A stretch of 45,153 nucleotides of DNA. Source: a virus (lineage: Duplodnaviria; Caudoviricetes). Within the stretch, counting starts at the first letter, position 1. Each line of letters starts with the position of its first letter. The translations under genes and the position numbers were made by a program. Below the pieces are notes generated by a model. It was not told where the DNA came from. It saw only the letters and a list, made by a program, of their open reading frames with translations, and made no database searches. The DNA lies in IMG/VR virus record IMGVR_UViG_3300037851_000618, positions 1 to 45,153 of that record; one strand, given 5' to 3'. Positions 17,869 to 41,617 of the stretch are shown piece by piece.

Positions 17869-18963
17869 CTATGCCAATCCGTATATACGATAACACCATG
17901 CTTCCTGTGCTATAACGAGTGTTATGTATTCCTTTATAGTGAATTTGTAGGAGTCACCGGTCTTTGCTAGTTCTTCAAGAGTTGCATCCTGAAGGACTCT
18001 TATCTGAATGTTGTTCTGAGTCACTGTATCCAAGACATACATTTCTCGGCTGCTTGCAGTTGTGCTCATGAATAGGTCAGGAATCATTGGAATTCCCTCG
18101 AATTCAATAGCCTGTATTCCCCAAGCAATCTGTACACCGGGATTTGGATAACGAAGCTGATCCTGTATCAAAGCCTTCACATCGTCAAGGGTTTTGTAGT
18201 CCGTAACGATAAGGTTTGGATGACCTTTTGCTTCTCTAATTGTTCGGATAGCATCTCTGATGTTTGCTAGTGTTATTGTTGCTGCTGATTTATTCAGCGT
18301 GTTCGTGGTTATTAATGCAACAAAGCCACTGAATGCGTTTTCATCGGTTACGCCACCGTCCACTGTACTACTTGTTGGGTTTCCATTTATTATACAGTTT
18401 TCTTCCATCTCTTTCAAAGCTCTGAAGTGAGCTTCGGTTTCGAGCTGGAGAGCTGACTGCCAAACCTGTGAAGCTATTATCATTGGACCTGAAACTTCAC
18501 CGGTTGCATACAGGAAACTCATTTTTCTTGCTGCTCTTGTATATGTTGCTACATCACTTGTCAATGCCGAACCTTCTGGCTTGAATTTTGCTGTTGGTAG
18601 AACAGTTCTTTTTACAATATCTGCAAATATTCCTCTGTTGGTTACTCTTGCGAGCAAACCGCTTGCCAGTGGAGTATCTCTCCTCGTCAAATCGTAAAGT
18701 TGTGAATCTACGAATGTTGGCAAGAGGACTGGAATGCTTCCAGATGTTGCTGAATACTGTGTACCGGTTGCCATTAGTGGGCTTGTGGATGTTAGCACTG
18801 ATTTTATTTCTTCAGTTCCCCATGGGGTAACTGTTCTCGCTTTTGCTTCTTCGACAGGTACTGCAGGAACGTGCATATAGACTGTTCCATTTGGTAGATT
18901 ACCAAAGGAGTTCATATATACAAGGTCTGTGTTTACGCCATCGGATGAGCCTATTTGTGCCAT
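17869..18963 (-). CDS. Major capsid protein (HK97 fold)
   Basis: Follows protease; 'RRDTPL', 'PEG', 'EMEENCIING', 'FSGF', 'GHPNLIVT' and 'FEGIPMIPD' HK97-type motifs; likely ATG 18963 after GAGGTG. Confidence 0.88.
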   Translation of the reverse strand: MAQIGSSDGVNTDLVYMNSFGNLPNGTVYMHVPAVPVEEAKARTVTPWGTEEIKSVLTSTSPLMATGTQYSATSGSIPVLLPTFVDSQLYDLTRRDTPLASGLLARVTNRGIFADIVKRTVLPTAKFKPEGSALTSDVATYTRAARKMSFLYATGEVSGPMIIASQVWQSALQLETEAHFRALKEMEENCIINGNPTSSTVDGGVTDENAFSGFVALITTNTLNKSAATITLANIRDAIRTIREAKGHPNLIVTDYKTLDDVKALIQDQLRYPNPGVQIAWGIQAIEFEGIPMIPDLFMSTTASSREMYVLDTVTQNNIQIRVLQDATLEELAKTGDSYKFTIKEYITLVIAQEAWCYRIYGLA

Positions 18964-18974
18964 ATTTATACACC

Positions 18975-20303
18975 TCATTTACCGAATCGCTTTTGTATCT
19001 GCGATTTAATTGAAAAGTCACTTTCGTTTATAGGCTTTTCAAATTTGTCTTTATCTTCGACAAGGGATTTTATCTCCGGCTGGAAATTCATCAACGCTTC
19101 TTTTACATAGCCTTTAAATTCTTCAGCTAGTTTCTTATCATGTTCCATCGAAGTAATTTTTTCCAATTTAGATTTCATCTCCTCGAATTCTGTTTTCGAG
19201 ATTGAGATCATCTCATCAGTATTTTTTATTTCCTCGGATTTTACTTCCTCGGTTTTAACTTCTTCGGACTTGACCTCGTCTATCTTTTCTTCGATTTGTT
19301 CTGTCATACGTTCACCTTCCGAAATTTCTGATTTGCCCTGTTCCATTTTTTCCAATTTATCATAGTAAATCGGGTCTTCTTTGATATGGGCAAGGGCAAT
19401 CTTCAGTATAAGCTCGTCATCACCATTGGTTACATCCATGTGCTCCTTTTTCTCCACCATGTAACCTTTATGGAGTTGGTGTATGTCACCAGAGAAGCCT
19501 AATTGAGATGCAATTACTTCTAGTTTTTCTTCATCGGACATTTCACCAGTTTCTATCTCACCATCAAGTTTGAATTGATTGTCATTGACAGACTTCCATT
19601 CGTCATACATTTGCTGTGATTTTACAAAGAAGTCCAAAATCTTGGCTGCCTTATTTATTGGTCGTCCTGTAAAAGTAACACCCTTTAGAAGTATTTTATT
19701 GAGCAGGCGAACAGATTTTCCTGCTATATTTTTAAATTCAAAATCCACAGGCTTATATTCTATGGAAGTAGCATCAAGAAAACCATCCTTAATGCTACCC
19801 CATAGATTTTCAAAATTGGGGTGGTGTTTATTGAGCATAGCTGTTGCTTTAATACGAGATTTTCCATCTTCTTTAGTTTTTTGGACTTCGATAATCTTTG
19901 CATGAGGTAAAAGTCTTTTATCCCCTGCAACATAAACATCATGTTCTAAGCCCATCTTTACCATGACCGGAGCATCTTTCAGCTGTCCTATAATATCCTG
20001 TTGGCACGACTCCGTAACAAGATCATTAACGTCATCTATGTCATCAGTAGTTAGATAGAAATTTACAAAATGGTTTCCGTCTTCAGATTTAAGATATGTC
20101 ATCTCATCAGAAACAACAGAAATGGATTGAGCAAATTCACTAAAATCGGTTTTTTTATCTTCCTGTTTTCTCATTATAGTAGCACATATTTTTTGAGCAG
20201 ACTCTTTATTATACATTTCTTCGGTTTTAGGGTTCTTCTTGTTTTGAAAATGTCCTACACATTCATCAAAATGACCAGATTTACCATCGAATTTAAAAGG
20301 CAT
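18975..20303 (-). CDS. Prohead protease fused to a DUF5661-like domain and scaffold-like coiled coil
   Basis: 'DIDDVNDLV', 'EH', 'WGSIKDGFLDATSIEY' and 'GVTFTGRPINKAA' HK97 protease motifs; 'EH...KIALAHIKEDPIYYDKL'; acidic EVKSEE repeats. Confidence 0.85.
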   Translation of the reverse strand: MPFKFDGKSGHFDECVGHFQNKKNPKTEEMYNKESAQKICATIMRKQEDKKTDFSEFAQSISVVSDEMTYLKSEDGNHFVNFYLTTDDIDDVNDLVTESCQQDIIGQLKDAPVMVKMGLEHDVYVAGDKRLLPHAKIIEVQKTKEDGKSRIKATAMLNKHHPNFENLWGSIKDGFLDATSIEYKPVDFEFKNIAGKSVRLLNKILLKGVTFTGRPINKAAKILDFFVKSQQMYDEWKSVNDNQFKLDGEIETGEMSDEEKLEVIASQLGFSGDIHQLHKGYMVEKKEHMDVTNGDDELILKIALAHIKEDPIYYDKLEKMEQGKSEISEGERMTEQIEEKIDEVKSEEVKTEEVKSEEIKNTDEMISISKTEFEEMKSKLEKITSMEHDKKLAEEFKGYVKEALMNFQPEIKSLVEDKDKFEKPINESDFSIKSQIQKRFGK

Positions 20304-20348
20304 AGCTAATTGCTCCTAATCTACTTATAATATGTTATATGAGAAGCA

Positions 20349-20358
20349 GTATTTAAAG
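20349..20358 (-). promoter_or_regulatory. Putative late-arm TATA box CTTTAAATAC
   Basis: In the portal-protease gap; recurring motif. Confidence 0.6.
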
Positions 20359-20363
20359 AAAAA

Positions 20364-21788
20364 TTAAACCTTTTCTAATTGTGTTTGCTTTCTTTTTTTA
20401 TTATTTTCTACCTTATTTTCTGGTGACATCATAGAAGGATTATTCATTTGTCCTTGCCTGTCGTTTGGAAATTGTGAATTCTCTAAAATCTTATCCTGAA
20501 CTTCATCTTCATTTAGTCCGATTTCCCTTAAAAGTGCTTCCTCAGTCATCGCTTTTCCATAACCCTGCAAAAGTGCTTGTTTCTTAGAAGCTGTATCGGC
20601 AGCAAACATGCTTATCTGTGCTTCTCTTATTTCGTCCTGCTTGTATGTTCTGTTAAATCGTAGATCGACACCGAATTCACTGAGCAAATTCTCGTTTATT
20701 AAATCCTCGAATAAATCTTGATAGTGAGAAATTTTCCTGTAGTACCCTTCCAGAGAAGTGTCCGAACCTTTTATGCCTTTGGTCTGTAAAAAGTCTGATA
20801 AACGTGAAGATGGTATTCCCCACGCCATTACTATTGTCTGGGCTGTAAATCTAGCCAAGTCAGAAAATTGCATATCCTTTACATTATTTAACTCCTTCAC
20901 ATCGACCTTGCCTGTTAATATCATGGATTTCCATTTCTGCTGGATTTGCATATAAATCTGCAACTGTTTTTTGAATAATTTAACAGTAGGGGAATCCGGA
21001 GTTTCCTCTGGTAGTATAAACATATATGGTGGTACTCCACCCTTTTCAAACAGGTTTTTCTCGTAATCCTTTACGTTATAGAGTATATCCAATTCTCTGA
21101 ATAAAGCTGATAGTGGTGTGAAGCCATAAACTTGACCATCTATAATTGTTGGTGCGAAATGCACTACTTCCCATGGTTCTAATTCAACTATTCTCGAACC
21201 AACTCTCTGTACATATTTTAGAATGCTTCCATGCCTGTCATAACGAATCTTTATTGTAGAACTAGGTAGCAATCTAACATTTCGTGTCTGATAAAGAGAA
21301 TCACCTTCAGCTTTCAGTTCTTCTTCAATACTTGAAATAAGATATTCAGAAGCATAACTTTTTACCTCGAAGGGTAACTTTTTGATTATGGAATTTAACA
21401 TAGTTTTAATTTGTTCTTTGGAAGCCTTTACTTTGTATAAATAACCATCACCAGTTACAAGTGTATCAAATAAGAATGAAGTGAATAATTGTTTAGCCAA
21501 ATTTCGTGAGAGAAAAGCATTTGCCTTATTTATTTTTTGTTTTCCTGATCCCTTTTCTCTTGGTTGTAAATACCAACCATCAGAAAGAATATCCTCCACA
21601 ATAGCTGTTACACAGGCGACAACTTCAGGAGATTTTTTGAAATATGACCAAAGAGTTACATGGTCTGTTGGTGGAACTATACCAAAAGGTTGAGGAAAGA
21701 AAGCAACTGTATCATTAACGAGGTTTTCCGTTTCATTGGCAATCTTAATGCTCTCATTATATTTGCTATCTAAATAAATCATGACCAT
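20364..21788 (-). CDS. Portal protein (HK97 family)
   Basis: 'PEVVACV..I', 'TGDGYL', 'EVVHF', 'YGFTPL', 'FEKGGVP', 'DMQF' and 'AWGIP' portal motifs. Confidence 0.92.
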   Translation of the reverse strand: MVMIYLDSKYNESIKIANETENLVNDTVAFFPQPFGIVPPTDHVTLWSYFKKSPEVVACVTAIVEDILSDGWYLQPREKGSGKQKINKANAFLSRNLAKQLFTSFLFDTLVTGDGYLYKVKASKEQIKTMLNSIIKKLPFEVKSYASEYLISSIEEELKAEGDSLYQTRNVRLLPSSTIKIRYDRHGSILKYVQRVGSRIVELEPWEVVHFAPTIIDGQVYGFTPLSALFRELDILYNVKDYEKNLFEKGGVPPYMFILPEETPDSPTVKLFKKQLQIYMQIQQKWKSMILTGKVDVKELNNVKDMQFSDLARFTAQTIVMAWGIPSSRLSDFLQTKGIKGSDTSLEGYYRKISHYQDLFEDLINENLLSEFGVDLRFNRTYKQDEIREAQISMFAADTASKKQALLQGYGKAMTEEALLREIGLNEDEVQDKILENSQFPNDRQGQMNNPSMMSPENKVENNKKRKQTQLEKV

Positions 21789-21820
21789 ATAGCTACCTCT
21801 TTTATTATTATCTCAATCCT

Positions 21821-21934
21821 CTATTTAAAGCATTTTGTACCGCATATTGGACAAAATAGCTCTTTTTTCTCATGACACTTGTCAAATTTCCCTCTCTTCC
21901 GTTTCAAAGCATAACCGCATACTATACATGGCAT
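21821..21934 (-). CDS. 37-aa zinc-ribbon microprotein (CIVC...CPIC)
   Basis: Read manually: MPCIVCGYALKRKRGKFDKCHEKKELFCPICGTKCFK; TAATG overlap with the terL stop. Confidence 0.6.
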   Translation of the reverse strand: MPCIVCGYALKRKRGKFDKCHEKKELFCPICGTKCFK

Positions 21935-23496
21935 TATAAATTACTGAATTCTGTATTACATACATCACAAAACCAACTCTTTTCATTTTGTGCCAAATCA
22001 GAACCACAATAGGGGCATGGTCTGACTTTCTCAAATTTGTCATCATACTCCATTGGTTCATTTTCCATCAAAGTTGAAAAACCAGCATTACCGCTACCAG
22101 AACTTAGGGCAGCTTCTATGGCTAGACCAAGAGCTATAACAGTATCATCATGACCACCCAGAGCTTCGTAGGTTGTCTTGCCGGATTTATCTTTTTTAAT
22201 ACCGAAGTTTCTTAATTCAGAAACTCTAACAGGGTTGTCAAGTATTTTTAATTGCTTTGAGGAAAGGGTAGTTTCTATCCAGCTTATCAATAATTCTTTA
22301 CCCTTACGACTTGTATCGAAACCTTCCGTAATCATTTTCAATTCAGGATGATTCAGCATATCCTTGACCATACCAAGACTTAGACCTCTTGATTCAATTA
22401 AAATTTTTCTGAAGTTGAAAGCACTATTTAATTGCTCAATTCTTTTAATCTGCCAGCTTGTGCCTTTACCTTGATAACGTTCTACTTTGACTTCCTGAAT
22501 ATGTTTCTCCTTATCCATCTCCAAAACAACATAACTAGACCAGTCAGCAGTGTTGTTTTCTGAAATAGCAATATCACAACCACAATAATAATAGTATCCC
22601 TGCCGAGCATGATTCAATTCCATAGTATGTCTATTCTTCAACATCTCCTCAGTAAAGATGGAACTGCCTCCTGCGTGAGGGTTGCACATATATTCTCTGT
22701 CAAACCTCAAACCACCAATTAATCCTCTCATAGCTCGCAATTCATCAAGATTGAAATTCTCCTTCCATAATGGCTCTACCCAATTTCCTGTCTTATCAGT
22801 TATAACTGCTTCGTGTTTTGAAATTATAGGTAACAAACCAGATTTCAAACATAAATTATGAAGCTCATAGAGGGCATCTCCTTCTTTGGCTGTAGCTAAA
22901 TTGGATAAATCAGATAGAAGATCATCGGTAGTCATGGGCGTTCCGACAACAATCAACTGAGCCTTCCTCGTGTTAATCGTTGGAAATATCAAGGACCAGA
23001 AAGCATCTTTAGCCTGTTCCTGTGTAATATCTTCATTACGAAGTATATCATCGCATATATATATATCAGGATGTGTTCCTCTAATAGTTTCATTGAATGG
23101 TTTTATGAAATACCTATTTCCATTGGTGGTATTAATCTGTGATTTATTCCACGTTTCAGATGTGGTTTGGGGTTTCAACCATTTTAATTTTGGATTGGTT
23201 TCTATGGTATTTTGTATTAGCTCCATAAATTTCCAACTCTGATCCAAAGCACTACTTGTAAGACATATATCAAGATTAGAGAATGAGTAAAGATTATAGA
23301 TAGCCCAGTCGTGAGTTAATATCGTAGTTTTGAGATGACCTCTGGGCCATATAAAAACAGGAAACCTGTGACGTAGATTTTTAATATCATCACGATGCCA
23401 TGAAGACAGTTTTCGATTCATTATGGTATCTTCAAATTCTACAAAACTTAGTGGTTTAAAGTCCTGCGATCTCTGGTCTTCGTTTGATTCGTTCAT
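21934..23496 (-). CDS. terL: Terminase large subunit with C-terminal Zn ribbon
   Basis: Walker A-like PRGHLKTT, 'IRG', Walker B YICDD, VVGTP, 'FDREYMCNP', nuclease GCD and HDDTVIA; C-terminal CPYC...CDVC. Confidence 0.93.
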   Translation of the reverse strand: MNESNEDQRSQDFKPLSFVEFEDTIMNRKLSSWHRDDIKNLRHRFPVFIWPRGHLKTTILTHDWAIYNLYSFSNLDICLTSSALDQSWKFMELIQNTIETNPKLKWLKPQTTSETWNKSQINTTNGNRYFIKPFNETIRGTHPDIYICDDILRNEDITQEQAKDAFWSLIFPTINTRKAQLIVVGTPMTTDDLLSDLSNLATAKEGDALYELHNLCLKSGLLPIISKHEAVITDKTGNWVEPLWKENFNLDELRAMRGLIGGLRFDREYMCNPHAGGSSIFTEEMLKNRHTMELNHARQGYYYYCGCDIAISENNTADWSSYVVLEMDKEKHIQEVKVERYQGKGTSWQIKRIEQLNSAFNFRKILIESRGLSLGMVKDMLNHPELKMITEGFDTSRKGKELLISWIETTLSSKQLKILDNPVRVSELRNFGIKKDKSGKTTYEALGGHDDTVIALGLAIEAALSSGSGNAGFSTLMENEPMEYDDKFEKVRPCPYCGSDLAQNEKSWFCDVCNTEFSNL

Positions 23497-25646: not shown

Positions 25647-26090
25647 ATATGCTCGGACATATACATTATTATATGTAATTGTATAGGAAAAATTTATATA
25701 AAAAAATATATATAAAATAGAGAGAGTGGATAGTTCTAACCCTGCCTCTCGTGTTTTTCACTACTACCCCGTTATATATGTTATAAAATATATGTTACAT
25801 AATGGATTATATATAAAGATTTCTATACTATATACTATAATATGTCTTTATATACCTACTAAAGTAAGTAAGTAATAGAGTAAGGAAATAAGATGATTAT
25901 GTTGTAATGGCATAATATCAAACACAACAAACAAAAATAAACTTAATGACCAAGAGTATAGCGATATACTGAATACCAAAGGGGAAATACAGCGAGGGTA
26001 TATTTTTGTTGTGCCTGAATTTTACCTTTTTATTTATATTTAGTCTATATGTAAACTATATGTAGACGTATAAAATAAGATGGTGGTAAT

Positions 26091-26660: not shown

Positions 26661-26760
26661 TTATTTTACTTATAATAATCTATATGTTGTAAATAGAATC
26701 AATATAGATACAATATAGATTATAATAAAGAAATATAGATATAAAAAAGAGGTGCTTGAA

Positions 26761-27156: not shown

Positions 27157-27205
27157 TTTTATTTTTTTATTTTTTACTTATAATAATATATATGTTACAG
27201 CATAT

Positions 27206-28516: not shown

Positions 28517-28891
28517 ATGTTTAATGAAAAAGAATATATGAAAGAATATTACAAAAGAAATAAAGATAAAATTAAAGCAAGAACTAAAAATTGGAAATTA
28601 AATAATAGAGAAAGAAAAACAGAACTAAATAAAATTCATATAAGGAAACATAAAGAATATTATAGTAAGAAAGTGAGAGAATGGCAAAAAAATCACATAG
28701 AGATATACAAAGCACAAAAACAGGTATATTATGCAATAAGGCGAGGACAGATACCAAAAGCAAAAACCTTAATTTGTGTAAAATGTGGACAACAAGCAAA
28801 AGAATACCACCACTACAAAGGTTATTTAAAAGAGAATTGGTTAGATGTTATACCTTTATGCAAAAAATGTCATTTCTTTATAGACAAATAG
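28517..28891 (+). CDS. HNH-like zinc endonuclease
   Basis: CVKC...EYHHYKGY...LDVIPLCKKCH with a basic helical N-terminus. Confidence 0.7.
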   Translation: MFNEKEYMKEYYKRNKDKIKARTKNWKLNNRERKTELNKIHIRKHKEYYSKKVREWQKNHIEIYKAQKQVYYAIRRGQIPKAKTLICVKCGQQAKEYHHYKGYLKENWLDVIPLCKKCHFFIDK

Positions 28892-28903
28892 GAGAGGATT
28901 TTT

Positions 28904-29548
28904 ATCGGATTTTCTGGATTTAAAGCTAAATTAAGTTATCAGACCGAGAATTTTGCAATAAGCACAGATATACGCTTTAAAAAAATGGAAATCGTAGATT
29001 TAAGCAAAGAAGTAGAAATAGTAACACGCAACAAAGATAACGGACTTATAGCTAAAAAACAAAGTGTGGACTCTCTATCTGGTGAGAAGGTTGCCTTTAA
29101 TTACCGATATATAGATGAAGAAGGAAACGAAGTAAGCAAAGAAAGAATAGGGTTTTTCTTGAAAAAGAATGGTCGAGAGATAGAAGTTAAACCTTATGCA
29201 AGATCAACAGAATTGGTAATTAAAGGAGAAATACCTATGGATAGGGAAACAGATTTTAGTATAGAGTCTATATACGAATTATGGGCAGATGACTCTAATA
29301 CGCTATGGAAATTAGCTAAAAAACTACATGAAAACAATAGTTTAGCTGTATCTAAATATACATTTGGGAATGGATTTAAACAAAGTATTGTATTACTAAA
29401 ACCTATAATACAAGAAGATAAATTCGTGTTCCAGATGTTATTAACACAGAAAAAGAAAGAATATACGAAGCTTATGCCTATTCTGAAAGCAGAAAAAATA
29501 AAAGAATCTGTGCCGACATTAGAAAACTTAATGGAAGCTATAATATAA
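28904..29548 (+). CDS. ku: Divergent Ku-like DNA end-binding protein (ATG at 28985; possible ATC start at 28904)
   Basis: Collinear by-eye match to prokaryotic Ku core: YRYIDEEGNEVSKERI, STELVIKGEIP...IESIYELWAD, LWKLAKKLHENNSLAVSKYTF...IVLLKP; adjacent to a ligase. Confidence 0.68.
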   Translation: MGFSGFKAKLSYQTENFAISTDIRFKKMEIVDLSKEVEIVTRNKDNGLIAKKQSVDSLSGEKVAFNYRYIDEEGNEVSKERIGFFLKKNGREIEVKPYARSTELVIKGEIPMDRETDFSIESIYELWADDSNTLWKLAKKLHENNSLAVSKYTFGNGFKQSIVLLKPIIQEDKFVFQMLLTQKKKEYTKLMPILKAEKIKESVPTLENLMEAII

Positions 29549-29564
29549 ATTTTTGGTGAGGGGA

Positions 29565-30305
29565 ATGTATAATCCGAGTCTATGTGTAGAGTTTAAAATA
29601 TCTGAAATAGATAAACTAAAAAATCATATATTTCAGAATAAAGAAGATGGTATGAGAGTTTTAGCCGAGATTAAAGATACTGTAACTCTATATAATAGAC
29701 ATAACGAGGTTATACATTTTCCCTTAATTCAAGAAGCATTAAAAGAGTTTCCTAATTGTGTTTTAGATGGTGAACTAATTAGTGATGATTTTAGTAAATT
29801 AGTCAGTATTGCACATAGTAATAATAAAGATGAGAGTAGTTTAAAGTTTATAGTATTTGATATTTTAGAAATTGAAGGTAAATATATAGGTAACCGACCA
29901 TATACTACTCGTAGGTTGAACTTATCTCTTTTACCTTTTAATGATAAAATACAATTAATACAAGATTATACAGATTATAAACATATATGGGAAACATCTA
30001 AAGAAGGCATTATAGCCAAGCGTAGAAATTCAATATATCAACATAAGAGAACTACGGATTGGATTAAAATCAAACATTTTAAAGAGAAAATATTAAAATT
30101 TGATAAATATGAACTTCATAGTAATGAAGCAGGGATTACTCTCGATAACGGCAAGGATAGAGTTTCGGTAGGTAGTCAAGAGATCAGTAACCAAATAATA
30201 GAATACCTTAAAGGTCATACTTTTATATCGGTAGAAGTGCAATATCTGGAAGATAACGAACACTTGAGGTTTCCGAGTTTTAAAAGAATAGTGGGGGGAG
30301 AATAA
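29565..30305 (+). CDS. lig: Minimal ATP-dependent DNA ligase
   Basis: Motif I KEDGMR, III VLDGEL, IIIa FIVFDIL, IV EGIIAK, V WIKIK, VI LRFPSF; GGTGAGG RBS before ATG 29565. Confidence 0.92.
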   Translation: MYNPSLCVEFKISEIDKLKNHIFQNKEDGMRVLAEIKDTVTLYNRHNEVIHFPLIQEALKEFPNCVLDGELISDDFSKLVSIAHSNNKDESSLKFIVFDILEIEGKYIGNRPYTTRRLNLSLLPFNDKIQLIQDYTDYKHIWETSKEGIIAKRRNSIYQHKRTTDWIKIKHFKEKILKFDKYELHSNEAGITLDNGKDRVSVGSQEISNQIIEYLKGHTFISVEVQYLEDNEHLRFPSFKRIVGGE

Positions 30306-30463
30306 TGTGCAAAAAATGTAAATTAATAGATGAATGGAACAAAATTTGTCAAGAATTTGAAACTATAATATCCGAGTATGAAGATAAGAGAACACTTTAC
30401 AGAGCTAAAATATTAGAAATTGAAGAAAAAATTTTAAAGGTAAAGTCATGTGGGAGAGGGTAA
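30305..30463 (+). CDS. 52-aa hypothetical protein
   Basis: Read manually; TAATG-coupled to the ligase stop. Confidence 0.5.
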   Translation: MCKKCKLIDEWNKICQEFETIISEYEDKRTLYRAKILEIEEKILKVKSCGRG

Positions 30464-30464
30464 A

Positions 30465-31589
30465 ATGGTTAAATTGTATGAAGCAACAGAAAAGCAGATT
30501 AAAAAGAGTTTAAAACTTAATGACTCAATAGATTTAAAGGCTCTATGGGATAGCAAATTAACTAAAAAAGAGAATATAACTAACCTATGTGAACAGCTTA
30601 ATATTTCTCTCGTAAAGCATACTAAAGCTCAAGATAAGGACAACCAAGCACAAGCAGAAGAATACTTACAACAAGAACTCAATAGAATTATAGAGGAAAC
30701 CGAGCAATTAGAAAAAGAAGCATTAAAAGAAATCCGTAATTCTTCACCAAATATAGAAAAGCACTTCTATATACCTATAAACTATATAAAAAATGTAACT
30801 CAAGCACAAGAAGATGATGGGCTTTATTCTTTTATCTGGTTAGGTAATGCAGGATTGGGTAAAACACATACGACTATACAAGAACTCAATAAGATAGGTG
30901 AGAAGGGGAAGGATTGGGAAATATTAAGTGGTTACGCTACCCCGTTGGAACTCTATACTTTCCTATATGAGAATAAAGATAAGATAGTAGTTTTAGATGA
31001 TATACCAAGCTTATTTGATAATCCGATTAGTTATCATATACTTCTCTCTATACTATGGAATGTAAGTAAGGTAAGAACAGTATCCTACTTAAGCAGTAGT
31101 CAGAAACTAAAAGTGCCTTCAAAATTTGATTTTAGAGGTAAGGTTATTTTCTTGACAAACATAATGCCTAAAGAAGCCGAATCTCTAAAATCAAGATGTT
31201 TATTTTACGAAACTAAATTTAGTTATGCCGACAAGATTGCAGTAATGCAGGAGATAGCTAAAATACGAGAAATACCCAATGAAATTATAGACTATGTAGT
31301 AGATAACACAGATGAAACTACTAACAACCTTAATTTTAGGTTACTTATTAAGATATATGGATTATACAAGATGGATAAAACTAATTGGAAACAGTTAGCT
31401 GATGAGCAGTTAAACAAAGATGAGTATATGTCTTTAGTAAAAACACTCACAAAAACCATAAATAAGGTATCGGAACAGGTATCCAAATGGACAGATGAAA
31501 CAGGTATGTCCAGAAGAAGCTTCTTTTATTATAAGAAACGAATGGAAAAGGATTGGGAACAAAGAAGTGCAAAAGTGCAAAGGATTTGA
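30465..31589 (+). CDS. AAA+ ATPase with C-terminal HTH (possible replication initiator/loader)
   Basis: Walker A GNAGLGKT, Walker B IVVLDD, sensor IFLTN, Arg finger LKSR, C-terminal 'TGMSRRSFFYYK'. Confidence 0.82.
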   Translation: MVKLYEATEKQIKKSLKLNDSIDLKALWDSKLTKKENITNLCEQLNISLVKHTKAQDKDNQAQAEEYLQQELNRIIEETEQLEKEALKEIRNSSPNIEKHFYIPINYIKNVTQAQEDDGLYSFIWLGNAGLGKTHTTIQELNKIGEKGKDWEILSGYATPLELYTFLYENKDKIVVLDDIPSLFDNPISYHILLSILWNVSKVRTVSYLSSSQKLKVPSKFDFRGKVIFLTNIMPKEAESLKSRCLFYETKFSYADKIAVMQEIAKIREIPNEIIDYVVDNTDETTNNLNFRLLIKIYGLYKMDKTNWKQLADEQLNKDEYMSLVKTLTKTINKVSEQVSKWTDETGMSRRSFFYYKKRMEKDWEQRSAKVQRI

Positions 31590-31648
31590 GAATATATGTG
31601 TATTTGGGAACAAAGAACAGGGCATTTTGGGAACAAAGAACAGGGCAT
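31553..31648. repeat. 23-bp tandem direct repeat plus one partial copy
   Basis: TTTGGGAACAAAGAACAGGGCAT at 31603-31625 and 31626-31648; TTGGGAACAAAGAA at 31553-31566. Confidence 0.9.
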
Positions 31649-33226: not shown

Positions 33227-34873
33227 GTGTTACTTATGCAAATGGCTTCGAAGCAGAAACTACGAGGAGGCTTCTATACGCCTGAGGCTATAGCTTCATT
33301 TATTCTAAAATGGGCAGTAAACGGCAACAAATATTATGATGTTCTGGAACCAAGTTGCGGAGACGGGGTATTTTTAGAGCAGATAAGAGAAAATGATTTC
33401 GAGTGTAATTCAGTTACAGCCGTAGAAATAGACAAGGTAGAAGCCGACAAAGCCAGAAAAATCAATCTTCCACATTCAAAAGTATTGAATGAAGACTTTT
33501 ACAAATTTTGCAATAACACAGAAAACAGATTTGATTTGGTTATAGGAAATCCTCCATATATTCGCTATCAATATTTTGACAAAGACCAAAGAGCGGGAGC
33601 CGAAAGAATTTTTGAACGTGCAGAAATCAAGTATTCCAAACTTATGAATTCTTGGGTTTCTTTTGTGATTGGTTCGAGTTTATTACTCAAGGAAAAAGGA
33701 AAAATAGGATTTGTTCTTCCAGCAGAAATACTCCAAGTATCATATGCAAAGCAGTTGAGAACTTTTCTTGCCCGTTATTATAACAAAATAAATATAGTAT
33801 CGTTCAGAAAACTTGTATTTCCACACATACAACAAGAAGTTGTTTTGCTTCTTTGCGAAAAGAACGGGACAGACTCTCATTTAATTGAGCATCTTGAACT
33901 TGAAGACGCATCAGAGCTTGAAAGACTTGATGTCAGAAAACTAAAAAGTCCAAAGAAGCACATAGATTTCAAATCGAATAAGTGGACATTCTATTTCTTG
34001 GAACAGGAGGAAATAGATTTCATAGAAACCTTGCTAAATCAAAACACAATAAAACCAATACGTCATTATGCCAAAGTGGAAGTTGGTATGACAACAGGTT
34101 TCAATAAATTCTTCACTGTGCCATCCGAAATAGTAGAGGAATATAACTTACATGATTACGTCAGACCTATGGTTGGAAGGAGCGTTCAGGTTTCAAGCGT
34201 CATATTCAATAAAACGGATTGGAAAGATAATGTCAAGGCTGGAGCAAGAGCCTACTTTATTCATTTTCCTTCATTGAAGGAATTGAAAAACAACAAGAGA
34301 GCATTAGACTACATCAAAGAAGGAGAAAAAGCTGGTATTCACAAACTCTATAAGACAAGTATTCGTGATGAATGGCATACCATGCCTTCGGTTTGGATTT
34401 CCGAGGCTTTGTTCATCAGAAGAAATAACATCTATCCAAGATTCATAATAAATGAGGCAAAAGCCTACACTACTGATACGATGCACAGGGTTATGATTAG
34501 GAAGGACGCTAATCTTATCACAGGAAAGCCCATTAACATTAAGGCACTTGTAGCGAGTTACTATAATTCTCTTTCATTCGCTTTCGCTGAGATATGTGGC
34601 AGAAGTCATGGAGGTGGAGTTTTGGAACTGATGCCTAATGAAGTTGAGAACGTACTGCTTCCATACAATGACAAGAATGCCGAAATACTTGACAAGATAG
34701 ATAGAATGCTAAGGTCGGGTAAAAATATAGATGATGTCCTCAAAATCACTGATAAAATAATACTAAAGCAAAATTACGGATTCTCAGATTATCAGATTAA
34801 ACTTGCTAATCGTATCTGGAAAAAGCTACTCAAAAGGCGACTTGAAAGAAACACTCCTAAATTATCTCAATAA
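33227..34873 (+). CDS. Adenine DNA methyltransferase, gamma class (Eco57I/BsuBI-like), orphan
   Basis: GGFYTP, LEPSCGDG (motif I), NPPY (motif IV), C-terminal target-recognition region. Confidence 0.92.
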   Translation: MLLMQMASKQKLRGGFYTPEAIASFILKWAVNGNKYYDVLEPSCGDGVFLEQIRENDFECNSVTAVEIDKVEADKARKINLPHSKVLNEDFYKFCNNTENRFDLVIGNPPYIRYQYFDKDQRAGAERIFERAEIKYSKLMNSWVSFVIGSSLLLKEKGKIGFVLPAEILQVSYAKQLRTFLARYYNKINIVSFRKLVFPHIQQEVVLLLCEKNGTDSHLIEHLELEDASELERLDVRKLKSPKKHIDFKSNKWTFYFLEQEEIDFIETLLNQNTIKPIRHYAKVEVGMTTGFNKFFTVPSEIVEEYNLHDYVRPMVGRSVQVSSVIFNKTDWKDNVKAGARAYFIHFPSLKELKNNKRALDYIKEGEKAGIHKLYKTSIRDEWHTMPSVWISEALFIRRNNIYPRFIINEAKAYTTDTMHRVMIRKDANLITGKPINIKALVASYYNSLSFAFAEICGRSHGGGVLELMPNEVENVLLPYNDKNAEILDKIDRMLRSGKNIDDVLKITDKIILKQNYGFSDYQIKLANRIWKKLLKRRLERNTPKLSQ

Positions 34874-36966: not shown

Positions 36967-37027
36967 AAAAGGTTATGATTGTTTTTGTGGGAAATTAAAG
37001 GAGAAATCCAAGAGAGGTGTTTAGAAA

Positions 37028-37441
37028 ATGAAAATACAAATAAAACGTTGGGATAATAGAAAAGTAATCTTTGAATGTGAAGCAGAAAATATTAAACAAG
37101 CTGTAGAACTTGCTGTATCTAAAAAGATTGACTTATGTGGTTGTGACTTGAGTTTTGCTAACTTGAGTTTTGTTGACTTGAGTTCTATTAACTTGAATTC
37201 TGCTAACTTGAGTTCTACTAATTTGAGTTCTGCTAACTTACATTCTGCTAATTTGAGTTCTGCTGACTTGCGTTTTTCTGACTTACATTCTGCTAATTTG
37301 AGTTCTGCTAACTTGAATTCTGCTGACTTGAGTTCTGCTAACTTGAATTCTACTGACTTGAGGTCTGTTAAGGGAACATTTACATACAATTATGGTATTA
37401 AACTCAAAGTTGTAAAGGAGAAATCCAAGAGAGGAATATAG
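37028..37441 (+). CDS. Pentapeptide repeat protein
   Basis: Tandem S-A-N/D-L-x repeats encoded by a 15-bp DNA period; 'IFECEAENIKQAVELAV' N-terminus. Confidence 0.9.
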   Translation: MKIQIKRWDNRKVIFECEAENIKQAVELAVSKKIDLCGCDLSFANLSFVDLSSINLNSANLSSTNLSSANLHSANLSSADLRFSDLHSANLSSANLNSADLSSANLNSTDLRSVKGTFTYNYGIKLKVVKEKSKRGI

Positions 37442-37747
37442 ATGAATCAGCAAGAAGTAACTTTAGACCTAAAAGAATATGGTGCAATAGGGTATGTTAT
37501 AGTAAAAGATAATACAATTTATTGTCCTGCTATAATGATTTTAGACGGGTTTAAAATGCGTGAAATATTTGATAGACTTGTAAAAGAAACAGGAATTAAC
37601 AAAGTAATTTTTACAGCAGTATGTTCACCGTTTCTAAAGCAAAAATTACATAACATAAAAAGAGAATATGATATATGGTTTGAAGAAATAGGTGACTATA
37701 GTCATTGTATAGAAGTTGAATGGATTATACAAAAAGAAGTAAGATGA
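37442..37747 (+). CDS. Hypothetical protein
   Basis: RBS supplied by repeat copy 2. Confidence 0.65.
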   Translation: MNQQEVTLDLKEYGAIGYVIVKDNTIYCPAIMILDGFKMREIFDRLVKETGINKVIFTAVCSPFLKQKLHNIKREYDIWFEEIGDYSHCIEVEWIIQKEVR

Positions 37748-37787
37748 ATTGGTATGTACGAAATCTTCGCCAAGAGAGGTGTTTAGA

Positions 37788-38012
37788 ATGTTTAGAGGGG
37801 ATAAAGACTCAAGATTTGATAAATTGGTAGATGAAGCTCTGACTAAAATGGAAGATTTTAAAGATGATGAGGGATATTTTTCAGCTCAGGATATAGCTAT
37901 CCGTTCTCTTGAACTATATGAAGAAAAAATATTAAAAGCGATAGAGAATCTGGATTTTTTAAACCTAACTAAACAAAATATAAGGAGAGTGATTAGCGAT
38001 GCTGTCGATTAA
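37788..38012 (+). CDS. Hypothetical acidic protein
   Basis: Likely start ATG 37788 after GAGGTG in repeat copy 3. Confidence 0.65.
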   Translation: MFRGDKDSRFDKLVDEALTKMEDFKDDEGYFSAQDIAIRSLELYEEKILKAIENLDFLNLTKQNIRRVISDAVD

Positions 38013-40535: not shown

Positions 40536-40616
40536 TTACCACCTTACACATTGGCAAATTATACATTCGCCATAGGGGTGATTTTGCATATCATGTCCGC
40601 AGTCCTTACATTTCAT
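40536..40616 (-). CDS. 26-aa Cys/His microprotein (family copy 3)
   Basis: MKCKDCGHDMQNHPYGECIICQCVRW; ATGA overlap with the phosphoesterase stop. Confidence 0.55.
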   Translation of the reverse strand: MKCKDCGHDMQNHPYGECIICQCVRW

Positions 40617-41617
40617 CTATAAGACCTCGTTGTCTTGGCAAATTCCTTACCTTTTTCCTTCATGTCCGGCTGAACATAGGTTGCTTTGAAATGTTCTATT
40701 TCCCTGCCTCTCGTATCTAATTCTACAAGAAATAATCCATTAGGACCTGTAAGTCCACGTCTTACGCAGTATTCATTCTTTCCGTCTTGAAAACTACCAG
40801 ACTGGAGAACATGAATTCCGTGGTCTTTGCCCGAATAAAGAGTATGATAATGTCCTAATAGAATTATGTGGGGTACTTCTGGTAACTCACGCCTTTCCAG
40901 ACCTTTAAAATAATCCCTTAGATAAGTCTGGCTTGGGTAGGATATGGCATAAGTCCTTCCAGAAGCTCCATGTAGCAGTCGGATACGAATACCCTTATAA
41001 ATTACATCAGCCTGCAAATCACCAAGATTCTTGAAATTATCCACTTTAGCCTCTAATATAGCTAAAGGTTTAGCTCCATTCTGTTTGGTGAAAGAGTAAT
41101 CGTGATTTCCGGCTATACCCCAAAATTCTAAGTTTGGGTGTCTTATTAAAGCTTCTGCTACCACATCGGTTTGGTCTTCTATACCTACTTCGGATAGGTT
41201 TTCAATTTGTCCAGAATAAACATGGTCACCATCCATTAAATCTCCTGCTACATAAACTTTATTTATACCAGAATCTTCAGCTCTTTTCATGCATTCATGC
41301 CATGTTTTAGGCAGAAAGAACTTAGAGCCGAAATGCCAATCGCTTGAGGAAGCAAAACGAATATTGCTTCTCCCATCAGAGCCTGATATATAGAAAACAT
41401 TATCCCTATCTGGTAAAACATTGACATGGTACAGCATATCTGTTCCATCTCTGGCTTGGGTAATATCTACAGTAGTTCCAATCTTTCGGAATTCTTCAAT
41501 ATACTTCTGAATATCGGCTTCAGGTAAGCCGGTAGAAGCAGTGAGTTCAGACATAGGTAGCTTGTGGTTTCGTAAAGTAGTCAATAACTTTCTGTGTTTT
41601 TTATCCATAAATACCAC
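40613..41617 (-). CDS. HTH + calcineurin-like metallophosphoesterase
   Basis: DWH, GDLMDG, GNHD, LHG and GHYH motifs; N-terminal winged-HTH-like segment. Confidence 0.88.
   Translation of the reverse strand: MVFMDKKHRKLLTTLRNHKLPMSELTASTGLPEADIQKYIEEFRKIGTTVDITQARDGTDMLYHVNVLPDRDNVFYISGSDGRSNIRFASSSDWHFGSKFFLPKTWHECMKRAEDSGINKVYVAGDLMDGDHVYSGQIENLSEVGIEDQTDVVAEALIRHPNLEFWGIAGNHDYSFTKQNGAKPLAILEAKVDNFKNLGDLQADVIYKGIRIRLLHGASGRTYAISYPSQTYLRDYFKGLERRELPEVPHIILLGHYHTLYSGKDHGIHVLQSGSFQDGKNEYCVRRGLTGPNGLFLVELDTRGREIEHFKATYVQPDMKEKGKEFAKTTRSYR

Follow-up and report, generated by a model that had tools for sequence, protein, structure and literature searches.

The window analysed here is the whole 45,153-base IMG/VR record IMGVR_UViG_3300037851_000618, of the direct-terminal-repeat class, in which a gene for a divergent Ku is directly followed by a gene for a small ATP-dependent DNA ligase. 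Both lie within a run of closely packed plus-strand genes (about 26.1–33.2 kb), whose label as an "early" operon is read purely from gene layout. The features on which the analysis turns are as follows.

17869..23496, minus strand: head module (major capsid protein, portal and large terminase), which marks the record as a tailed virus
28517..28891, plus strand: HNH-type endonuclease (phrog_2340 endonuclease, E = 1.2e-11), directly upstream of Ku
28891..28897, plus strand: motif GGAGAGG resembling a ribosome-binding site, 6 nt upstream of the ATC at 28904 and overlapping the HNH stop
28904..29548, plus strand: divergent, C-terminally short Ku, 214 aa (family profile, hhalign, AlphaFold2, Foldseek, homodimer model)
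29565..30305, plus strand: minimal ATP-dependent DNA ligase, 246 aa, ATG start (PF01068, phrog_114, motifs)
30305..30463, plus strand: 52-codon ORF overlapping the ligase stop, with weak coiled-coil-type Pfam matches (E = 0.011–0.035)
30465..31589, plus strand: AAA+-type ATPase from a family common in viruses (phrog_1250, E = 2.9e-25; Atlas AAA clusters 0.95–0.98)

Viral genome and host

The first 127 bases of the record are identical to its last 127, presumably the assembly overlap of a circular contig, and the 45-kb genome is likely complete. The head module comprises a major capsid protein (Pfam SU10_MCP, E = 1.6e-17), a portal (Pfam Phage_portal, E = 2.6e-24) and a large terminase (phrog_38, E = 3.1e-36); with these three on the same record, the viral location of the Ku–ligase pair given in a preliminary description of this DNA stands. 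The archaeal nature of the virus, also claimed there, we retain as probable only: the capsid protein matched solely the haloarchaeal viruses HHTV-2 and HCTV-2 (4 of 50,697 phage records, 23–27% identity), whereas the terminase matched only bacterial phages (12 records, 21–28% identity), and the portal had no match in the phage-record search. Among 20 Ku relatives looked up, the sole one with a taxon is assigned to Candidatus Bathyarchaeia, the Atlas cluster nearest to Ku is 71% archaeal, and GAGGTG or GGTGA precedes the start in many genes of the genome. We consider an archaeal host quite likely. Neither a DNA polymerase nor a primase, helicase or integrase was matched among the 42 larger ORFs (Pfam, PHROGs), and replication seems to be left to the host.

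Identity and fold of the Ku protein

As a single sequence, the Ku protein matched Pfam Ku at E = 0.0026 (18.1 bits, below the cut-off of 25), with no Ku match in PHROGs or NCBIfam, no notable match among PDB sequences, and no pairwise similarity to the Ku of phage Corndog (E = 1.4). A profile of 21 canonical Ku proteins scored it at −0.2 bits, the same as its reversed sequence, and hhalign of the single sequence against canonical Ku returned a probability of 0.08, within the range of 60 shuffles. In the Atlas, Ku clusters ranked first for this protein both by features (0.90) and by structure. A phmmer search of 1.84 billion representatives yielded 126 non-self matches at E ≤ 0.001, one of which (P0163) was rejected as a false match. 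Pfam Ku was detected in 21/126 of these relatives at E ≤ 0.003 and above its cut-off in 6/126, and no other Pfam family recurred across them. Judged by sequence similarity, the family appears to comprise about 125 distantly related proteins, most of which Pfam does not detect.

Of the 126 relatives, 104 were aligned with the window protein to give the family alignment; the other 22 were excluded as fragments, long fusions or the false match. Its profile had two matches among PDB sequences at E ≤ 1, both of them prokaryotic Ku (8v53 and 9i91, E = 2e-6), and aligned with the canonical Ku profile over 150 columns at 97% hhalign probability (E = 8e-11), while none of 26 control alignments (one reversed, 25 shuffled) exceeded 0.43%. 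It also recovered 20 of the 21 canonical Ku proteins, missing that of Corndog (E = 0.78). AlphaFold2, supplied with the family alignment, modelled the monomer with a pLDDT of 93.9 and a pTM of 0.81, and in each of the 35 matches listed by Foldseek for this model the structure contained Ku, of human, M. tuberculosis or B. subtilis origin (best E = 6.5e-10). The TM-scores by query were 0.44–0.54. The rmsd, at 4.9–11.6 Å, is high, perhaps owing to the bridge arm of a monomer modelled alone. Together, the family profile, the AlphaFold2 model and the Foldseek matches settle the identity of the protein: as the preliminary description had suggested, ORF 28904–29548 encodes a true but highly diverged Ku of the PF02735 superfamily.

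The protein is also predicted to form a homodimer, of which the preliminary description had proposed an AlphaFold model as a check for a DNA-threading ring. The dimer model scored 0.72, against 0.00 for the best of three controls, and passed a mark that 20/30 solved homodimers and 1/23 single chains reach; its runs shared at least 86% of contacts with a pLDDT of at least 79. This pass may stem from likeness to solved Ku dimers. Profile comparisons match its bridge region to the one in bacterial Ku; residues 30–100, which would include the bridge over the DNA in a putative closed ring, are absent from the confident dimer contacts.

Distance from canonical Ku

Members of the family end a median of 49 residues after P167 (10–90% range 44–56), while the bacterial Ku template has 107 or more residues beyond the corresponding column, a difference of roughly 60 residues. 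In B. subtilis Ku, a minimal C-terminal region is described as needed for the interaction with LigD (PMC8656161). With so short a tail, this LigD-docking region is largely missing, and any contact between Ku and ligase here would either differ from the bacterial one or not exist. In a quick tree of 41 rows, which held no archaeal or eukaryotic reference Ku, 30 family members stood apart from 11 canonical Ku proteins with a support of 100. The canonical profile had no match to the window protein, no NCBIfam Ku model recognized it, and its tail is short; it belongs to the Ku superfamily but lies outside the canonical prokaryotic Ku of the M. tuberculosis and B. subtilis type. Three relatives (P0137, P0151 and P0161; 891, 627 and 816 aa) carry an N-terminal part of this Ku type followed by N-P-punctuated repeats without a Pfam match; they form a single clade on the Ku tree and look like polyprotein-type or multi-domain fusions.

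The start of the Ku gene

The open frame around Ku spans 28892–29548, and the codon at 28904, which had been described as the start, is ATC and not ATG. The position itself is likely right. GGAGAGG lies at the spacing found before most other genes in the genome, residues 2–27 are filled in 85% of alignment rows with the same mean identity as the rest (0.27 vs 0.27), residues 8–29 take part in contacts of the homodimer model, and Met occupies the alignment column of this ATC in the two best relatives with a full start (P0055 and P0058). The first ATG, at 28985, gives the 187-aa database protein, has no ribosome-binding motif before it, and drops 27 conserved Ku residues. Such truncation of window-type Ku by gene callers keeps the family hidden.

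An ATC start is rare, and the Met that relatives carry at its column could be read as a lost ATG in a decaying or mis-assembled gene that makes little product or a truncated one of 187 aa, with the ligase working alone; one related locus (L100) does hold a frameshifted Ku. The frame is, however, open and conserved throughout, its first residues are as conserved as the remainder, and the ribosome-binding-site-like motif sits at normal spacing, so that we regard this reading as very improbable. The reading of the ligase would be unaffected even then.

A minimal ligase beside Ku

The ligase starts at the ATG at 29565, 16 nt past the Ku stop at 29548, exactly the gap first described, with a ribosome-binding-site-like GGTGAGG just before it. 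It matched Pfam DNA_ligase_A_M (PF01068, E = 3.4e-14, above the cut-off) and phrog_114 (E = 3.6e-29). Its best NCBIfam model was the NHEJ ligase TIGR02779 (E = 3.7e-26, 92 bits, below the cut-off of 228), and it scored 72 bits against TIGR02776 (cut-off 373). All core nucleotidyltransferase motifs, as claimed for it earlier, are in place (residues counted from the TTG at 29553). Aligned with 15 relatives, these are motifs I (K30-E-D-G, R35), Ia (R49), III (D72-G-E), IIIa (F102-D), IV (E151-G..K156) and V (W170-x-K172); R239-x-P241 of motif VI is invariant in a three-row alignment. The nucleotidyltransferase domain is followed, after motif V, by a putatively OB-like C-terminal part of about 70 residues that ends in R-x-P and aligns with relatives, with no match to PF04679. 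The enzyme has no POL, PE or N-terminal DNA-binding domain. Given its 246 aa, the lack of POL and PE domains, and scores below the TIGR02776 and TIGR02779 cut-offs, the ligase is not a LigD. It has no close relative, the 47 non-self matches reaching at most 37% identity.

The scan of 42 ORFs with Pfam and PHROGs turned up no polymerase or phosphoesterase of the LigD type. A calcineurin-like metallophosphoesterase with an N-terminal extension lies at 40613–41617 on the minus strand; its best NCBIfam match is the small subunit of archaeal DNA polymerase II, far below the cut-off, and it could be a candidate supplier of end processing.

Recurrence of the Ku–ligase pair

We scanned JGI metagenomes with a seven-sequence Ku sub-alignment drawn from outside the window's own subgroup, and obtained 14 Ku loci, which may or may not be viral and whose Ku proteins are only 28–37% identical to the window Ku. 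Merging near-duplicates by reading left 10 distinct elements. A PF01068 ligase follows on the same strand within 1 kb downstream at 7/14 loci, equivalent to 4/10 elements (L088; L092/L095, with one small ORF between the genes; L097–L099; L101), and in two of them the gap is below 10 nt or the genes overlap (L097/L099 and L101). The synteny search proposed in the preliminary description thus finds the same gene order elsewhere, in metagenome loci. Within the DNA at hand, a ligase is absent from L091 (774 nt downstream), from L093/L094 (up to 1.8 kb), where a DUF932 gene follows Ku, and from L100 with its frameshifted Ku; in L089, L090 and L096 the sequence stops within 400 nt of Ku. In L098 (656–1672), Ku and the ligase start share one open frame, whereas the near-identical L097 and L099 have two overlapping genes, so this frame is either a sequencing error or a natural fusion. 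Further neighbours of family members include a weakly matching PCNA-like gene (L099, 2632–3450), an ASCH-domain gene (L096, 78–909) and the DUF932 gene (L093, 1690–2880).

In two trees, the Ku-adjacent ligases of the four elements group into a single clade (support 98 and 94, the second tree computed minus two poorly placed rows). The window ligase fell outside this clade in both trees, and forcing it inside was not rejected (p-AU 0.126); the pairing may have been inherited, or re-formed with another small ligase. Pfam Ku was absent from 21 of 25 viral records carrying a relative of the ligase, many of them fragments, and small stand-alone ligases are common in phages without Ku.

These observations bear on another role, in which Ku only protects DNA ends, as Mu Gam does, the ligase seals nicks of replication or recombination, and the two are neighbours as early DNA-metabolism genes. 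The short C-terminus, in which the LigD-docking region is largely missing, would suit such a protector, as would the three of 10 elements with no nearby ligase and the placement of the window ligase outside the Ku-adjacent clade; the chief role of Gam itself is described as end protection (PMC8987985). A neighbourhood of this kind fits less well with a Ku-then-ligase order in four distant elements, two of them with a gap below 10 nt or an overlap, or with NHEJ-type models as the best matches of the ligase. On this evidence we judge the protector role rather unlikely, though well above the other alternatives considered here.

Flanking genes

The preliminary description had placed an HNH nuclease and an AAA+ ATPase at the flanks of the pair. 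The HNH gene does lie directly upstream, but the ATPase is not adjacent, as the 52-codon ORF at 30305–30463 intervenes. Neither gene is supported as part of a module: no window protein besides Ku and the ligase was matched at the 14 related Ku loci, the HNH and AAA+ proteins included, and Pfam Ku was found in 0/4 viral fragments that carry a relative of the ATPase.

The HNH nuclease enters into another reading, in which the target is host DNA or host defence instead of repair of the viral genome: Ku would block host end processing or the capture of CRISPR spacers, or the two proteins would promote integration or rearrangement. Competition between Ku and Csn2 for DNA ends is considered possible in PMC12848934, and a nuclease gene directly upstream would accord with such a function. 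With the HNH gene not seen at related Ku loci and no integrase found among the 42 ORFs scanned, we give this reading hardly any weight.

Comparison with known systems

The bacterial NHEJ core is described as Ku plus an ATP-dependent ligase (PMC8656161, PMC11936186). The window pair resembles the Ku homodimer and LigD of M. tuberculosis and B. subtilis in its Ku core fold, predicted homodimer, adjacent genes and a ligase nearest to NHEJ ligase models. It differs in a Ku of 214 aa that has about 60 fewer C-terminal residues and stands apart on the tree (support 100), and in a virus-borne, stand-alone ligase of 246 aa that, unlike LigD, lacks POL and PE domains.

Among phages, Corndog (cluster O) and Omega (cluster J) likewise encode Ku, with a proposed role at viral genome ends, and both are reported to circularize with host LigD (PMC12848934; bioRxiv 10.1101/2023.06.07.543977, both citing the original work). 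The 12 kb of the Corndog genome examined carry no ligase annotation. The window Ku is unlike that of Corndog, with which it has no similarity pairwise (E = 1.4) or by family profile (E = 0.78). Corndog-type Ku occurs in 88 of 50,697 GenBank phage records, 87 of them mycobacteriophages, whereas a member of the window-type family used as query had 0 matches there. Gam of phage Mu is another viral protein of DNA ends, described as shielding them and as able to promote their joining (PMC8987985); the window Ku has no Gam match in Pfam, PHROGs or NCBIfam, and its fold is that of Ku proper. The list of viral Ku proteins in PMC11936186 holds 11 sequences, all from actinobacterial phages, and that source counts archaeal Ku as rare, with 19 sequences.

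Pairs with a canonical Ku exist in records classed as viral. Canonical Ku lies directly upstream of the ligase in 4/25 IMG/VR records with a ligase relative, and the loci L008–L010, L012, L013 and L020 share the order of the window, with ordinary bacterial Ku (Pfam E about 1e-56) in place of the diverged one. Although these records are short (12–42% complete for four) and viral by classification only, such bacterial-type pairs limit the novelty of a virus-borne Ku and ligase. In the open-access literature searched, no paper described a virus that encodes Ku together with a ligase, or described this Ku family.

In the archaeon Methanocella paludicola, NHEJ is carried out by separate Ku, ligase, polymerase and phosphoesterase proteins encoded on the chromosome. 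By description, the window is similar in its stand-alone ligase beside Ku and its probable archaeal setting; it is set apart, again by description and not by sequence, in being virus-borne and in having no polymerase or PE gene found here. We regard the pair as a variant of prokaryotic Ku–ligase end joining on a probable archaeal virus.

Proposed mechanism

We favour, with some reserve, the interpretation that the shortened Ku and the minimal ligase are a two-part end-joining kit for the DNA of the virus itself. In this scheme end binding, the cooperation of Ku with the ligase and the substrate are inferred. Free double-stranded ends of the viral genome, on entry or after a cut, would be occupied by a Ku dimer, which would guard them from resection by the host and tether them to each other. 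Ends that are clean and either compatible or blunt would then be sealed by the ligase; the genome would be closed into a circle, or cuts by restriction or CRISPR systems mended. As no LigD-type polymerase or phosphoesterase was found, damaged ends would need enzymes of the host or other viral enzymes.

For this kit we count the identity of Ku, the dimer model, the NHEJ-type models nearest to the ligase with its intact motifs, the 16-nt gap between adjacent genes, the recurrence of the pairing and the clade of Ku-adjacent ligases. Against it we count the short tail, the three of 10 elements with no ligase, the position of the window ligase outside the clade, residues 30–100 outside confident contacts, the rmsd of 4.9–11.6 Å, and the ATC start; to these is added the frequency of small ligases in phages that lack Ku.

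With both Ku and a ligase of its own, a virus would no longer depend on the end joining of its host and could repair breaks inflicted by host defences. The roughly 125 relatives add breadth to the Ku tree and bear on the origin of Ku. A two-protein system of 460 residues also lets one ask what Ku-stimulated ligation requires at the least, a question made apt by the near absence of the known LigD-docking tail. More speculatively, and with more doubt than conviction, we suggest that the short-tailed Ku proteins might be a lineage of their own in archaeal viruses and mobile elements, largely unseen by Pfam, which together with ligases of 250–300 aa would be the smallest self-sufficient end-joining system, closing and repairing viral genomes in hosts that lack NHEJ through a non-bacterial Ku–ligase contact and tuned here by a non-AUG start.

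Other features of the genome

An Eco57I-type adenine methyltransferase (33227–34873, plus strand; Pfam) suggests pressure from host restriction. Just past the AAA+ gene lies an exact 23-nt tandem duplication (31603–31648). A 25-nt AT-rich repeat (26664–26688 and 27172–27196, 96% identical) precedes two genes of the plus-strand cluster, with a similar copy at 25772, and is possibly a viral promoter or operator. Repeated segments of 19–30 nt (36996–37026, 37413–37443 and 37770–37788) overlap ribosome-binding sites around a pentapeptide-repeat gene (37028–37441), and are possible sites of gene shuffling.
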